Origin: Escherichia coli
GTDB taxonomy: Bacteria; Pseudomonadota; Gammaproteobacteria; Enterobacterales; Enterobacteriaceae
DNA: 4,051 bases
Assembly (NCBI RefSeq): GCF_024223415.1
Contig: NZ_CP100507.1
Direction: 5' to 3' (one strand)
Below are positions 1 to 4,051 of this stretch, in pieces. Positions within the stretch are counted from its first letter, which is position 1. Each line of letters starts with the position of its first letter. Under the pieces are notes generated by a model that worked only from the letters and a program-made list of their open reading frames with translations, did no database searches and had not been told where the DNA came from. A program made the position numbers and the translations under genes.

Positions 1-887
1 GGGCGTTAAGTGGTCGCGATTATATATCTAATGCCGCTGTTCATACTAGGAAAAGAACAGTTATATGTCTTGATATCACCAATTTTTATCCCAGCATTAG
101 TAAAAAAGATGTTTGTTCTATTTTTAAAAATTTAATGCGTTTTTCTCCTGATGTTTCTTTATGCTTAACGGAACTTGTGACGTTGAATAATAAGGTCCCT
201 CAGGGTGGGTGCTGTTCTAGTTATATTGCAAATCTTTTATTTTTTAATAGTGAGTATAATCTCTATAATAGATTGAAGTCTATGGGGCTTTCATATTCAA
301 GGCTTTTAGATGATATTACTATATCTTCTGATAAGGATCTTTCATCAGAGGAAAAAACAAAAGTAATAAAACTCGTTCACGGAATGGTGAATCAGTACAG
401 ACTTTCAATAAATGAAAGTAAGACAACGATAGAGCACTCAAAAGATTCGTCTTCTAAACTTAGTGTCACTGGGTTGTGGGTAAAGCATGGTGTTCCTAAG
501 TTAACAAAAGAAAATAGACGTTATATCAGGTACTTAGTTTATATATGTAAAAAACAAGGTGCTTATGAACGTCATACGAAAGAGTACCATGATTTATGGA
601 ATAGATGCTCTGGCAAGGTTGCTCAAATGTCGAGGCTTGGGCATGTCCAGGCGGTTGAATTGAGGGCGATTCTTTCTGAGATAATGCCAGTTTATGATGA
701 TTACAAGATATCTAAATTAAAGTTGATGGCTAAGCACTATCTAAATAAGTTTACGCCGCCTTTAACTGATGATCAGATTAGGAAAATAGATAGGATGCTC
801 TATGATTTTGATATAGTAGGGCGGACTAATAAGAATCTTGCAAAACTATATAGACGTAAGCTCGTGGCATTACTTCCAGATAGGTGA
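1..887 (+). CDS. Retron-type reverse transcriptase, C-terminal 294 codons plus stop (5' part at 3799..4051; the two join in frame if the molecule is circular, giving about 379 aa)
   Basis: The frame of the 135..887 ORF has no stop back to base 3. Translation from base 3: ALSGRDYISNAAVHTRKRTVICLDITNFYPSISKKDV... Contains NAAVH (NAxxH, nt 30-44), LDITNFYPSI (RT motif 1/2, nt 69-98), VPQGG (nt 195-209), an xxDD box reading LLDD (nt 303-314) and SVTGL with the retron-associated VTG triplet (nt 465-473). Stop TGA at 885-887. Confidence 0.9.
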   Translation, partial: ALSGRDYISNAAVHTRKRTVICLDITNFYPSISKKDVCSIFKNLMRFSPDVSLCLTELVTLNNKVPQGGCCSSYIANLLFFNSEYNLYNRLKSMGLSYSRLLDDITISSDKDLSSEEKTKVIKLVHGMVNQYRLSINESKTTIEHSKDSSSKLSVTGLWVKHGVPKLTKENRRYIRYLVYICKKQGAYERHTKEYHDLWNRCSGKVAQMSRLGHVQAVELRAILSEIMPVYDDYKISKLKLMAKHYLNKFTPPLTDDQIRKIDRMLYDFDIVGRTNKNLAKLYRRKLVALLPDR

Positions 888-891
888 TTAT

Positions 892-1095
892 ATGGAAAAT
901 GGATTTGTTAATTTTTATGACCATGTTAAAGGGTATGGCTTTATAAGGCGTGAGCGTGGACGTGATGTTTTCTTTCGGTATGATGATTTTTTGTTTTTAG
1001 GGCATGATGTCGATATATGTAAAGGTATTTTAGTTAGGTTTAAATTAGAAAAAACAGATAAAGGGTTTAAAGCTGTAGCGATTCAAAAGGTATAA
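892..1095 (+). CDS. Cold-shock-domain (CspA-like OB-fold) protein, 67 aa; probable retron accessory/effector protein
   Basis: ATG at 892, 4 nt after the RT stop, preceded by AGGTGA (882-887) as Shine-Dalgarno. Translation MENGFVNFYDHVKGYGFIRRERGRDVFFRYDDFLFLGHDVDICKGILVRFKLEKTDKGFKAVAIQKV carries the two cold-shock RNP motifs (KGYGFI like KGFGFI; VFFRY like VFVHF). The track ORF begins at a TTG at 838 overlapping the RT; the ATG at 892 with its SD is preferred. Confidence 0.85.
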   Translation: MENGFVNFYDHVKGYGFIRRERGRDVFFRYDDFLFLGHDVDICKGILVRFKLEKTDKGFKAVAIQKV

Positions 1096-1163: not shown

Positions 1164-1176
1164 CTTGCTGTGTAAA

Positions 1177-1201
1177 CGAAAAAACCGCCTTGCAGGGCGG
1201 T
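1177..1201 (-). terminator. RNA I rho-independent terminator (stem 1184-1189/1196-1201, loop ttgcag, T-run on the minus strand over 1177-1183)
   Basis: accgcc / ggcggt 6-bp GC-rich stem flanked by an A-run on plus (U-run in RNA I); equivalent to the pBR322 RNA I terminator hairpin. Confidence 0.6.
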
Positions 1202-1278
1202 TTTTCGAAGGTTCTCAGAGCTACCAACTCTTTGAGCCGAGGTAACTGGCTTGGAGGAGCGCAGTCACCAAAACTTGT
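1178..1278 (-). ncRNA. RNA I antisense copy-number control RNA (about 100 nt)
   Basis: Minus-strand start near 1278 (ACAAGTTTTGG, compare pBR322 ACAGTATTTGG) and end at the hairpin plus T-run at 1177-1201; fully complementary to the 5' end of RNA II as in ColE1. Confidence 0.7.
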
Positions 1279-1932: not shown

Positions 1933-2127
1933 TTATATCCCGGTGCGATTTTCCGCTTCAAAGCGTGTCTGTATGCTGTTCTGAAGTTCTTCCGCGAGTT
2001 CGTGCAGCTTCTCACACATGGCGGCCTGTTCGTCAGCATCAAGTGCGTCCAGTTTTTCGAGCAGCGTCAGGCTCTGGCTTTTTATGAATCCTGCCATGTT
2101 GAGTACGGTTTGCTGCTGCTTGTTCAT
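1933..2127 (-). CDS. rop: Rop/Rom (RNA one modulator) copy-number control protein, 64 aa
   Basis: Translation MNKQQQTVLNMAGFIKSQSLTLLEKLDALDADEQAAMCEKLHELAEELQNSIQTRFEAENRTGI resembles ColE1/pBR322 Rop (MTKQEKTALNMARFIRSQTLTLLEKLNELDADEQADICESLHDHADELYRSCLARFGDDGENL, from memory). ATG at 2127-2125, stop TAA at 1935-1933, GGAG about 11 nt upstream, convergent with RNA II as in ColE1. The C-terminal third is divergent. Confidence 0.9.
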   Translation of the reverse strand: MNKQQQTVLNMAGFIKSQSLTLLEKLDALDADEQAAMCEKLHELAEELQNSIQTRFEAENRTGI

Positions 2128-2958: not shown

Positions 2959-3225
2959 TTGGTTAAATTACTATTGGTGAGAAATGAATATTTCAATAAA
3001 AACAATGACTTAAAAACCGTTGCTCGGTTTGACGGTAAAACCTTAAGAGATGCCTTTTCGAGAAAAATAGCGACTTTTGATGGCAAGGTTTTAAGGGATG
3101 CCTCTTTAAAAAAAGTAGCAACCTTTGACGGTCAGAATTTAAGAGATGCTAGTTCAAAAATTATCCTGAGTGCCGATGCTGAGGTTGGGATTGTTGTTAT
3201 GGCCTTTGTAGCTGAGTTGATTTGA
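2959..3225 (+). CDS. Hypothetical small protein with three tandem 16-aa repeats and a hydrophobic C-terminus; non-ATG start (TTG 2959, or TTG 2974 / GTG 2977)
   Basis: Translation ...TVARFDGKTLRDAFSRK IATFDGKVLRDASLKK VATFDGQNLRDASSKI ILSADAEVGIVVMAFVAELI. Differences between repeat copies fall largely on synonymous third positions (Ala gct/gcg/gca; Asp gac/gat; Gly ggt/ggc; Arg aga/agg; Lys aaa/aag; Thr act/acc), a coding-type pattern. No in-frame ATG and no clear SD; in-frame stop at 2950-2952 limits the 5' end. Confidence 0.5.
   Translation: MVKLLLVRNEYFNKNNDLKTVARFDGKTLRDAFSRKIATFDGKVLRDASLKKVATFDGQNLRDASSKIILSADAEVGIVVMAFVAELI
3019..3162 (+). repeat. Tandem direct repeat, 3 x 48 bp (units 3019-3066, 3067-3114, 3115-3162)
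   Basis: Conserved cores tttgacggtaaaaccttaagagatgcc / tttgatggcaaggttttaagggatgcc / tttgacggtcagaatttaagagatgct at exact 48-bp spacing. Confidence 0.85.
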
Positions 3226-3282
3226 ATCTCATGCTGCATACCTTTTAGCCTATCGCTGGCAGGATAAGGCGCTTTCTTGTTG

Positions 3283-3310
3283 GTGACAGAAAGATAAAAA
3301 ACTTTATAAT
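3283..3310 (+). promoter_or_regulatory. Sigma70-like promoter facing the retron: -35 GTGACA (3283-3288), 16-bp spacer, -10 TATAAT (3305-3310)
   Basis: Perfect -10 consensus and 5/6 -35 at canonical spacing; predicted start about 3317. Lies about 190 nt upstream of a1, so it may drive the retron ncRNA-RT-csp transcript, but no nearer promoter could be identified by eye. Confidence 0.4.
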
Positions 3311-3507
3311 AATCAGCGAAGCGGGCGAACCACGCCTGGCTCTCGCTCTTTAACAAATGGTTACGTGTATGTTGCGCAAGGAAACCGATGCCTTGTTTTT
3401 AAGGCGATCTCGCATGAGATCATGACCGGCCTGGCCGCTAATTAATGGTGAGAACGCCCCTGAGCGTGTATCAGCACTAAAAGAATAGCGACGATTGTCT
3501 GGCAATG

Positions 3508-3520
3508 TGAGTTAAAAGTC
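3508..3520. repeat. Retron a1 inverted repeat (left arm)
   Basis: 13-bp perfect inverted repeat partner of 3780-3792; does not extend on either side. Confidence 0.6.
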
Positions 3521-3594
3521 CCAAAGAGCCAATAGAGTTTTTCCTTGCTTTCCTACTGGTCTGGCAAAATTTCATAACCAATAGGAGTTGCATC

Positions 3595-3777
3595 ATGTTT
3601 ATTATCAACATCAACATTAACGTAACCAAGAGCTCTTCATCTTGTTCTGGAGACGGTCAGATGAAGAAAAAAAGAGAGGTTGGCTCTCTGGAGGCACTGA
3701 AAAAAACACAGTTTTTGTTTTCTATGTGCTTGATTATGTTTAAAGTAATAGATTACGTATCGAAACTTTTTAACTAA
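3595..3777 (+). CDS. Hypothetical 60-aa ORF lying entirely inside the a1-a2 (msr-msd) region; possibly not translated
   Basis: ATG at 3595 preceded by AGGAG (3583-3587) at 7-nt spacing; stop TAA at 3775-3777. Protein MFIINININV... is low-complexity and Lys-rich. Position inside the putative retron ncRNA argues that it may be fortuitous. Confidence 0.2.
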   Translation: MFIINININVTKSSSSCSGDGQMKKKREVGSLEALKKTQFLFSMCLIMFKVIDYVSKLFN

Positions 3778-3779
3778 TC

Positions 3780-3792
3780 GACTTTTAACTCA
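3780..3792. repeat. Retron a2 inverted repeat (right arm), 6 nt upstream of the RT ATG
   Basis: Exact reverse complement of 3508-3520. Flanked by a near-direct repeat actttttaact (3765-3775) / acttttaact (3781-3790). Confidence 0.6.
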
Positions 3793-3798
3793 AACATC

Positions 3799-4051
3799 AT
3801 GAATAAACCCAGGTTTAATGGAACTCCTGTTGCATCTTTGGATTCTTTATCTGCGATGTTAGGCATAGAAAGAAAAAGATTGGACTGGATAGTCAAGTCT
3901 GTATCGATGTCGTACAAGCAGTTTAAGGTTGAAACAGGGAAGAATAAAAAAGAAAGGCAAATTTTTGAACCCAAGAGATCTTTGAAAGGAATTCAAAAAA
4001 AAATAAATAAAGAGATTTTTGAGAAAATTGATTACCCTCATTATTTGCATG
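3799..4051 (+). CDS. Retron-type reverse transcriptase, N-terminal 84 codons (continues past the window end; see 1..887)
   Basis: ATG at 3799, open to the last base of the window. Translation MNKPRFNGTPVASLDSLSAMLGIERKRLDWIVKSVSMSYKQFKVETGKNKKERQIFEPKRSLKGIQKKINKEIFEKIDYPHYLH is colinear with the N-terminal region of retron RTs (RQIFEPKRSLKGIQ resembles the Ec86-type IYQPSRELKALQG segment as I recall it). No Shine-Dalgarno is evident, so the start is the first in-frame ATG after a2. Confidence 0.85.
   Translation, partial: MNKPRFNGTPVASLDSLSAMLGIERKRLDWIVKSVSMSYKQFKVETGKNKKERQIFEPKRSLKGIQKKINKEIFEKIDYPHYLH

Follow-up and report, generated by a model that had tools for sequence, protein, structure and literature searches.

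A conserved ~480-nt structured RNA encloses a small open reading frame upstream of the reverse transcriptase of Retron-Sen1 (Se72) and other type V retrons

Introduction

What does the long inverted repeat in front of a retron reverse transcriptase (RT) gene enclose, and which part of the RNA around it is copied into DNA? These questions are raised by a stretch of 4,051 nucleotides from Escherichia coli (NCBI RefSeq assembly GCF_024223415.1, contig NZ_CP100507.1), hereafter the window, which harbours the founding type V retron, Retron-Sen1 (Se72). Directly upstream of its RT gene the two arms of a perfect 13-bp inverted repeat, here called P1, span 285 nt, which the original prediction, made from the sequence alone, took for the textbook retron arrangement a1-msr-msd-a2-RT. 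Comparison of 16 type V loci leads to a different layout, which we regard as the probable explanation as a whole: a Retron-Sen1 plasmid specifying an RNA of ~480 nt, in which P1 closes a domain with a small open reading frame (ORF) and the template of the DNA would lie just upstream of P1.

Retron-Sen1 has been described on a plasmid with a cold-shock-like accessory ORF; it is without an apparent priming G, no 2'-5' link was observed, and its DNA is double-stranded (Simon et al. 2019, PMC6868368). The DNA that Se72 yields is 72 nt long (summarised in PMC6868368). Mestre et al. 2020 (PMC7736814) took the cold-shock domain as the defining feature of type V and Retron-Sen1 as its example. Se72 protects against phage lambda-vir, which escapes it by mutations in the gam operon, and either Gam expression or loss of recB makes Se72 toxic (Stokar-Avihail et al., 10.1101/2022.08.27.505566). 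The trigger of toxicity is Gam, an inhibitor of RecBCD, as was confirmed by Zhang et al. 2025 (10.1101/2025.10.22.683967) in a study that also reports Spacer-seq coverage of the Sen1 msd. The Se72 insert of Millman et al. provided defence against one phage of the panel.

Results

The element is Retron-Sen1 on a complete small plasmid

A megablast search against plasmids found several from E. coli, each exactly 4051 bp long (e.g. NZ_AP027712.1 and NZ_CP066843.1), to which the window is identical over its entire length (100% identity, 100% coverage). Because these full-coverage matches have exactly its length, the window must end inside the RT gene of a circular molecule; it is a complete circular ColE1-type plasmid, cut within that gene, on which RefSeq annotates five genes (RT, 'retron Se72 family effector protein', Rop, MobA and a hypothetical protein). 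Plasmids of 4050-4054 bp from Salmonella share 97.8-98.4% identity with it. The guess made with the original prediction, that this might be the known Se72 / Retron-Sen1 system of a ~4-kb plasmid, was right: besides the RefSeq annotation, 3227-3625 is an exact match to the first 399 nt of pAA17, the Se72 insert assayed against phages by Millman et al., and the Retron-Sen1 (Se72) non-coding RNA (ncRNA) listed by Khan et al. equals 3358-3628 except for two single-base gaps in homopolymer runs. Since both published sequences match the window, the system is already known. It is the same element, with an RT and a cold-shock effector that match type V models and a plasmid that is likewise of ~4 kb; the host is E. 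coli here and Salmonella there, and functional differences are nil.

A ~480-nt RNA is conserved from a promoter-like site to the RT gene

We assembled 16 type V loci with RT identities from 100% down to 41%. A tblastn search against plasmids supplied loci from Klebsiella (84% RT identity), Edwardsiella (65%), Hafnia (60%) and Halomonas (42%). Querying proteins with the RT and looking up the contigs of the matches gave three metagenome contigs (78%, 72% and 67%) and further loci from Providencia, Morganella, Leclercia, Pseudomonas, Vibrio cholerae, Shewanella, Mixta and Massilia. A metagenome scan with a DNA pattern on the TGGTCTGGCA motif returned 120 loci, none of which encodes a type V RT or cold-shock protein by tblastn, and these were discarded as chance matches. 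The 16 loci were aligned by MAFFT without regard to structure (alignment A2), and for pair counts two of the four long-range helices described below, P1 and P2, were entered as pseudoknot brackets. The register of A2 is partly off for the most distant sequences, so that the pairing figures for the helices P0, P1 and P2 are conservative. All features of the RNA lie on the plus strand of the window.

Conservation in this set reaches ~190 nt upstream of the 5' arm of P1, back to a promoter-like site at 3283-3310 that agrees with 11/12 consensus positions (-35 GTGACA at 3283-3288, a 16-nt spacer and -10 TATAAT at 3305-3310). The conserved RNA, extending from this site to the RT start, measures ~480 nt (~3317 to 3792). 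The TATAAT block is aligned in most of the loci, and the site falls within the Se72 insert of Millman et al., which begins at 3227. We infer from these sequence features that transcription starts near 3317 and that the single promoter at 3283-3310 serves a three-ORF operon.

The 13-bp repeat was recovered where the original prediction had placed it. Its arms, TGAGTTAAAAGTC at 3508-3520 and GACTTTTAACTCA at 3780-3792, are complementary at 13/13 positions with 259 nt between them, and the 3' arm begins 3 nt past the small-ORF stop codon, with 6 nt left between its end and the RT ATG at 3799. Within 400-nt spans, P1 is the only perfect inverted repeat of at least 13 bp in the window; at least one such repeat occurred by chance in 19/1000 dinucleotide-preserving shuffles of the window and in 12/1000 shuffles of 3300-4051. 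Taken alone, the repeat is modestly beyond chance, and what secures P1 as a genuine helix is its conservation with compensatory changes across loci. When each locus is folded separately, the arm sequences of P1 (and of P2) vary by lineage yet remain complementary, as in Edwardsiella (GTGAGTTAGGGTC / GACCTTAACTCAT), Pseudomonas (TAAGTTGAGAGTC / GACTCTAGACTTA) and Massilia (AGTACTAAGGGGTC / GACCCCTAGTACT); in the alignment the helix is 83.9% paired, and 7 of its 13 pairs have changed on both sides. Covariation of the two arms in homologues, on which the original prediction had made its a1/a2 pairing depend, is therefore present.

Upstream of P1, the RNA opens with the 5'-terminal hairpin SL0 (CGGGCG / CGCCTG, 3322-3338; 94.7% of cells paired, both-side changes in 4/6 pairs), and the block GCTCTTTAA stands between SL0 and the 5' arm of the next helix, P0. 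The arms of P0 (3358-3374 and 3612-3628, 15/17 complementary), the second of which lies within codons 6-12 of the small ORF, bound the Sen1 ncRNA of Khan et al. As an equally good repeat arose in 5/30 shuffles, P0 could have passed for a chance repeat, but compensatory changes in its outer 7-8 bp in the wider alignment overturned this verdict (GGTTACG/CGTAACC, GGTCACG/CGTGACC, AATTACA/TGTAATT and CGTCATG/CATGACG). Its inner half is not conserved, and the main 14-pair block is 61% paired with both-side changes in 8/14 pairs. The neighbouring helix Px joins GCAAGGAAA (3376-3384) to TTTCCTTGC (3540-3548) by 9/9 pairs, is 87.7% paired and has changed on both sides at 9/9 pairs, for instance in Halomonas (CAAAGAA/TTCTTTG) and Morganella (CAAGGGA/TCCCTTG). 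Next comes an msr-like module (3390-3430), kept as a block in 16/16 loci, that consists of the hairpins SLa (3390-3405; 95.5% paired, both-side changes in 4/5 pairs) and SLb (3406-3421; 94.8%, 3/6 pairs) and the near-invariant ATGACCGGC (3422-3430). It is followed by a stretch of fixed length and variable sequence, segment G (3431-3486), which measures 55-57 nt in 12/16 loci and has a mean pairwise identity of 0.34, against 0.62 and 0.80 in its flanks, and then by the block GGCGAC-nn-TTGTCTGGCAA (3487-3507; 16/16 loci, mean identity 0.80), which abuts P1.

Inside P1, the 5' arm of P2 (CCAAAGAGCCAAT, 3521-3533) begins on the very base after the P1 arm and pairs with GTTGGCTCTCTGG (3679-3691), which codes for V-G-S-L-E of the small ORF; P2 is 81.7% paired, with both-side changes in 10/12 pairs, and the separately folded loci of Hafnia (CCTAAAGCCAATT / GATTGGCTTTATGG) and Massilia (TGTCCATTCTGAT / GTTGGAATGGACA) form it with other sequences. 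The hairpin H1 (3551-3586) appears in both predicted folds of the RNA and holds most of the Shine-Dalgarno sequence of the small ORF in its 3' strand; its TGGTCTGGCA was invariant in the first 7 loci compared. A further hairpin with a 9-bp perfect stem, H3 (3634-3667), lies within the part of the ORF that encodes a polar linker and is 72% paired with both-side changes in 9/9 pairs. We also observed that TGGCTCTC occurs at 3337-3344 near the 5' end of the RNA and again at 3681-3688 in the 3' arm of P2 (a conserved copy is absent from Hafnia), and that CCAAGAGC within the ORF (3626-3633) resembles the 5' arm of P2 (3521-3530); such copies could permit alternative pairings.

A direct repeat, GTCTGGCAA, occurs on both sides of the P1 5' arm: copy 1 (3497-3505) lies in the block just before P1, and copy 2 (3559-3567) in the loop and 5' strand of H1. 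Its core GTC(T/A)GGC is found twice in 16/16 loci, with the copies 59-69 nt apart, and both copies change jointly, to GTCAGGCAA in Morganella and Leclercia and to GTCTGGCG in Vibrio and Shewanella. A conserved RNA partner complementary to the GTCTGGC repeat was sought within the transcript, and none was found.

The four long-range helices and five local hairpins (86 pairs) were tested together over the 16 loci, with slid structures and 500 shuffles as controls. Standard pairs formed in 80.0% of cells, compared to 37-44% in slid controls; 59/86 pairs changed on both sides, compared to 22-34; and the covariation score was 0.308, compared to at most 0.122 in slid controls and a mean of 0.174 in shuffles. 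None of the three values was reached by any shuffle (0/500). The locus thus has what is expected of a retron, a structured ncRNA next to the RT with covarying terminal inverted repeats. Full-length minimum-energy folds, which are nested, pick P1 and P2 in 15/16 loci, and the nested full-transcript fold of the E. coli sequence picks P0 and Px (z = -3.6). The loop that Px closes contains the 5' arms of P1 and P2, whose 3' partners fall outside P0, and no nucleotide belongs to both helix sets; P0/Px and P1/P2 must therefore either form a pseudoknot or alternate. P0 and Px close a 5' domain with the msr-like hairpins and segment G, and P1 and P2 close a 3' domain with the small ORF.

These observations uphold only part of the arrangement first proposed for 3508-3792. 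The element is a retron and P1 is a conserved helix, but the repeat brackets a conserved small ORF, and the elements that resemble msr and msd lie upstream of it. An msr and msd inside 3508-3792 are not supported, as the structured RNA begins ~190 nt further upstream and the Sen1 ncRNA of Khan et al. (3358-3628) has a different repeat at its ends. No Rfam family matched this RNA: a scan of the whole window (E <= 1) returned RNAI of the ColE1 replicon and one spurious minus-strand match to an internal ribosome entry site in 3300-3800, a region that gave nothing else.

P1 encloses a conserved small reading frame

The ORF inside P1 (3595-3777) encodes 60 amino acids (MFIINININV...KLFN) with a predicted hydrophobic C-terminal helix. 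All 16 loci have an equivalent ORF of 57-74 amino acids whose end lies 21-42 nt upstream of the RT ATG, and gene callers independently call it in 10/11 contigs. All database relatives of the protein are named 'hypothetical protein' and have no Pfam domain, no model of NCBIfam or PADLOC matches it, and the 21-nt gap between the small ORF and the RT gene holds no further ORF. Wherever loci were inspected, a purine-rich, Shine-Dalgarno-like stretch precedes the ATG by 4-10 nt. In both predicted folds of the E. coli RNA the Shine-Dalgarno sequence AGGAG (3583-3587) is in the 3' strand of H1 and the AUG in a small hairpin, and over the 16 loci the predicted pairing probability averages 0.75 for each of them, compared to 0.61 for the whole RNA.

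An open frame in a structured RNA need not be translated. The region could act purely as RNA (an 'alternative msr'), with the frame a by-product of RNA constraint and the cold-shock protein as sole effector, and several observations weigh in this direction and against a masked small protein. Several helices lie inside the ORF, making selection at the RNA level certain, and the synonymous substitution rate (dS) of the small ORF between close relatives is 0.2-0.9, clearly depressed compared to >1 in the RT gene, the effect expected where RNA helices overlap with a coding frame. The ratio of nonsynonymous to synonymous rates (dN/dS) ranges from 0.26 to 1.0, a value reached in one pair, with a median of ~0.44, which suggests that constraint at the protein level is only moderate. 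AlphaFold2 models the N-terminal half of the protein with low confidence, and the pairing of the Shine-Dalgarno sequence exceeds the RNA average only moderately. Furthermore, published work gives the effector role to the cold-shock protein, and type V as defined in Mestre 2020 (PMC7736814), PADLOC and NCBIfam consists of the RT and the cold-shock domain only, the small ORF being missing from it.

The pattern of variation argues otherwise. The small ORFs of 16 lineages contain 0 in-frame stops in 1013 codons, compared to 30-111 in the other five frames, in DNA of 30-48% G+C. The ATG, the position of the stop and the Shine-Dalgarno-like stretch are kept down to 41% RT identity, and the C-terminal coding part (3692-3779) is the least conserved region of the RNA, with the frame still open. 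The proteins diverge to 7-18% identity and yet keep their layout of an alternating N-terminus (MFIINININV, SFKLCYAK, KLTFSFEK), a polar or charged middle and a hydrophobic C-terminus, where the Kyte-Doolittle maxima over 17 residues are 1.3-2.4; on the 16-sequence alignment AlphaFold2 predicts one helix there, at residues 29-59 (block predicted local distance difference test score, pLDDT, 73-90). In addition, an RNA of this kind in type VI retrons, the sister group, encodes a small hydrophobic protein that is a proven toxin. An untranslated frame appears rather unlikely to us on balance, with a chance that is still appreciable, and we regard the small ORF as a maintained coding frame and a candidate small protein of type V retrons.

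The DNA may be copied from a segment just upstream of P1

As the template of the DNA we favour, though loosely, the segment just upstream of P1, roughly 3436-3507, which comprises segment G and the block next to it. Segment G is most likely the msd stem-loop region, because fixed length and an identity below that of all other blocks are what an msd usually shows. Directly following the msr-like hairpins, it matches the position listed for Retron-Sen1 by Khan et al. as 'bacterial donor location 83;129'; the review wording (PMC6868368) gives no msd position relative to the repeat-flanked ORF and is neutral on this template. With a template at 3436-3507, P1 would set the RNA that follows its 3' arm beside template base 3507, which may explain the published 'self-priming' without a branch, and copy 1 of the direct repeat would come to lie at the 5' end of the complementary DNA (cDNA), as in the type VI retron Vpa2.

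Against this placement it must be said that we infer the position of the reverse-transcribed segment from features of the sequence, and that segment G folds weakly (RNA z-scores +1.4 to -3.5), as does the candidate 72-nt cDNA (-7.6 kcal/mol, z = -1.2). The DNA characterised by Rychlik and colleagues in 2001 reportedly has 72 nt with a 38-nt duplex and overhangs of 19 and 15 nt; a re-reading of this molecule as a hairpin (19-bp stem, 15-nt loop) followed by a 19-nt tail found no support, as the candidate cDNA folds with short stems only. Mapping of the msd by homology to Retron-Eco6 (Ec48) was also given up, the listed Ec48 ncRNA having no type V motif visible by eye. Two other segments compete for the role of template: H3, which beside P2 looks like a variable msd hairpin, and 3540-3611, the interval between the 3' arms of Px and P0, which measures exactly 72 nt and includes the site that Khan et al. 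call 'human donor'.

The first of these belongs to the textbook model, in which P1, or P1 with P2, would be a1/a2, the hairpins H1 and H2 the msr and H3 the msd, with priming from G3535 (AUAG) and leftward copying from 3678 over 72 nt to 3607. It draws on the conservation, covariation and dominance in full-length folds (15/16 loci) of P1 and P2, on the normal retron ncRNA size of the unit bounded by P2 (171 nt), and on H3, which is variable, has both-side changes in 9/9 pairs and adjoins the 3' arm of P2. No unpaired conserved G stands right after the 5' arm of P1; candidate Gs follow P2 (G3535) and Px (G3387 and G3390), and G3535 is kept in enterobacterial loci. For another type V retron, that of Haliea, the ncRNA chosen by Khan et al. 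was bounded by P1, but that construct gave no reverse-transcribed DNA (RT-DNA) by polyacrylamide gel electrophoresis, itself a weak argument against the textbook model. Also against it are the interior of the P1 repeat, a conserved ORF with its own Shine-Dalgarno site; the published Retron-Sen1 ncRNA, which is 3358-3628 and not P1-bounded; the review (PMC6868368), according to which the msr has no evident priming G and a 2'-5' link has not been seen; and the conserved 190-nt upstream domain with its msr-like hairpins, which would be left without a role. We consider this model improbable.

The second segment goes with a reading implied by the ncRNA of Khan et al., in which P0 (with Px) would be the canonical a1/a2 and 3540-3611, including H1, the msd. 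The exact 72 nt from 3540 to 3611 speak for it, and so do the covariation of P0 and Px, both of which form in the full-length fold of the E. coli sequence, and the placing of 'human donor location 203;220' (Khan et al.) in the H1 loop. However, no part of the RNA is better conserved than TGGTCTGGCA in H1, a trait unusual for an msd, and H1 also houses the Shine-Dalgarno site of the small ORF. The table of Khan et al. has a second donor site, 83;129, in segment G, so that its authors settled on no single msd. An msd at 3540-3611 is, in our estimate, quite improbable, and a template at 3436-3507 remains the placement that we favour.

The RT and the cold-shock gene are those of a type V retron

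The RT gene starts at 3799, runs to the end of the window (4051) and continues on the same plus strand from position 1 to a stop codon at 885-887. Joined across the window ends, the RT has 379 amino acids, with NAAVH at residue 95 (30-44) and VTG at residue 240 (465-473), so that the NAxxH and VTG hallmarks by which it had been called a retron RT are indeed there. Its best PADLOC model is RT_V (423 bits, residues 1-373), followed by RT_VI (242 bits) and RT_IV (219 bits), and the PADLOC matches ranking below RT_V are all retron RT models. Pfam RVT_1 matches at 2.8e-15. The closest solved structure is that of the Ec86 RT (E = 1.7e-22); solved structures of type IV, V or VI RTs were searched for, and none was found. 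As a side observation, the catalytic motif reads RLLDD in 15/15 type V RTs examined (here residues 186-190, window 556-570), compared to YADD in most retron RTs.

The cold-shock-domain protein that had been predicted downstream (892-1095, plus strand, 67 amino acids) begins 4 nt past the RT stop codon, is the RefSeq 'retron Se72 family effector', and contains RNP1-like KGYGFI and RNP2-like VFFRY. It scores 85.2 bits with the NCBIfam equivalog model NF038236 (retron_eff_Se72), above the cut-off of 82, and 85.7 bits with PADLOC CSD_V. The cold-shock gene lies directly 3' of the RT gene in 12/12 loci that reach beyond the RT (11 looked-up contigs and the Hafnia plasmid). With a cold-shock gene right after a clade-3 RT, the locus belongs to the type V / Se72 family.

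A recognisable Shine-Dalgarno sequence is absent from 15/15 RT genes examined, and the RT ATG lies 21-42 nt past the stop codon of the small ORF, just beyond the 3' arm of P1 (3778-3798 in the window, and equivalents elsewhere). The lack of this sequence, together with an ATG so close behind the small ORF and P1, suggests that the RT is initiated by translational coupling or under control of the structure.

Other features of the plasmid and distribution of the family

The remainder of the plasmid includes a ColE1-type replicon region (1130-2130), with RNAI (1176-1276, minus strand; Rfam, 94.6 bits) and Rop (1933-2127, minus strand), and PLSDB types this small retron-carrying plasmid as mobilizable. 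About 170 nt downstream of a mobA/nikA-like gene stands a perfect 11-bp hairpin (AGAATCGCGC-TGA-GCGCGATTCT, 2899-2923), which could be a terminator or part of a transfer origin. A hypothetical ORF of 88 amino acids (2959-3225) contains a tandem repeat (3028-3160) with 2.8 copies of a 48-nt (16-amino-acid) unit, FDGKxLRDA..., and has no match in NCBIfam or PADLOC.

A scan of genome contigs with the RT returned one locus only, a plasmid copy on contig CAUABB010000120.1, which is nearly identical to the plasmid (RT 99.7-100%) and binned in a metagenome-assembled genome (MAG) of an 'uncultured Oscillospiraceae'; this placement is most likely a binning artefact and not the true host. P2-like phage tail genes (gpR/gpS and baseplate gpV/gpW/gpJ) flank the type V retron on the Mixta calida chromosome (CP026378.1), and the type V family therefore occurs on prophages as well as on small plasmids.

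Discussion

As a locus this is a re-discovery, Se72 / Retron-Sen1 having been known since 2001 and tested for phage defence. What is new beyond the Retron-Sen1 literature is the family-wide conservation of a 480-nt RNA, its four long-range helices and the small ORF. The ncRNA boundaries usually given for Se72, whether 3358-3628 or those of P1, are too narrow for this RNA of ~480 nt with two interlocked helix sets.

With Ec86 (Retron-Eco1), Se72 has in common the NAxxH and VTG motifs, an ncRNA with terminal inverted repeats upstream of the RT, and anti-phage abortive infection. It differs in the absence of an apparent priming G and of an observed 2'-5' branch (PMC6868368), in an RNA that is 2-3 times longer and has two crossing sets of long-range helices and an embedded protein-coding ORF, and in the catalytic motif, which is RLLDD in the 15 type V RTs and not the YADD of canonical retrons such as Ec86. 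Retron-Eco6 (Ec48, type IV) is closer, being of a sister RT clade whose PADLOC model RT_IV matches the Se72 RT over its full length at 219 bits, and it guards RecBCD as Se72 does (10.1101/2022.08.27.505566). Its effector, with two transmembrane helices, is hydrophobic, as is the type V small ORF product, but is a separate protein encoded downstream of the RT, unlike the embedded ORF of type V; its msDNA (multicopy single-stranded DNA) is conventional, and, by eye, its listed ncRNA is without the conserved type V motifs.

The closest likeness is to type VI retrons. Retron-Vpa2 makes a hybrid RNA of ~470 nt that combines an msr-msd with the translationally repressed ORF of a small hydrophobic toxin; a1/a2-like repeats let the 3' end of this RNA pair with the first arm, the ribosome-binding site (RBS) and AUG lie in stem-loops, and conserved 7-nt direct repeats in the msd and in the riboregulator loop are proposed to let the msDNA unmask the RBS (10.1101/2025.10.22.683967). 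In Retron-Sen3, also of type VI, IR1-IR2 pairing flanks the gene for a small protein, and the coding region is under RNA structural selection (10.64898/2026.04.27.721009). Types V and VI have RTs of clade 3 in common, type V being the closest relative of type VI alongside type IV. Both have a structured transcript of ~470-480 nt that joins an msr-msd-like domain to a small ORF with a hydrophobic C-terminal helix, and in both an inverted repeat ties the region past the ORF stop to the upstream domain; in type V, a small ORF of this kind lies in the structured transcript, inside the long-range repeat, in 16/16 loci. An RBS and start codon within stem-loops, described for type VI, are found in type V by fold prediction only, and each type has a conserved pair of short direct repeats, copy 1 of type V possibly lying in the msd. 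The trigger, lambda Red/Gam and RecBCD, is common to both as well.

The two types are nonetheless distinct. The partner of type VI is a helix-turn-helix (HTH) protein encoded upstream of the RT, whereas that of type V is the cold-shock protein downstream of it, so that the gene orders are small ORF, HTH, RT and small ORF, RT, cold-shock protein, respectively. Here no Cro/C1-type HTH partner stands between the small ORF and the RT gene, which excludes the locus from type VI. Se72 reportedly accumulates DNA constitutively, unlike type VI, and Gam alone fully triggers Se72 but not Vpa2 (10.1101/2025.10.22.683967). Moreover, the small proteins of type VI have a proven role as toxins, while the small ORF of type V is a candidate that resembles them in layout. 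In the literature searched we found neither an extension of the hybrid-RNA idea to type V nor toxin or translation data for its small protein.

By analogy, the type V RNA may work similarly to the type VI hybrid RNA: the cDNA copy of GTCTGGCAA could pair with the second copy in the H1 loop, and the cold-shock protein would be a partner that binds single-stranded nucleic acid. We put forward, as a tentative possibility only, that type V retrons including Se72 are hybrid-RNA systems, in which the ~480-nt RNA would both template the msDNA and encode a masked hydrophobic protein of ~60 amino acids, which would either be the true effector that arrests growth or act as an indispensable third protein. 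In this reading the cold-shock protein, now annotated as the effector, would be a regulator that binds single-stranded nucleic acid, and the pairing of the cDNA copy with H1 would unmask the RBS, as proposed for type VI retrons. In the 2001 work of Rychlik and colleagues, three ORFs, one of them of unknown function, are said to have been required for DNA synthesis, and the hybrid-RNA reading might bear on that requirement.

All published Se72 constructs with checkable sequence include the small ORF, and the toxic role of the cold-shock protein may for this reason not have been separated from it. The small ORF and the interlocked 480-nt RNA are worth noting for those who work on clade-3 retrons. 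If the small protein is functional, type V would need to be redefined in PADLOC and NCBIfam, and it would join type VI as a second family in which reverse transcription controls the translation of a toxin.

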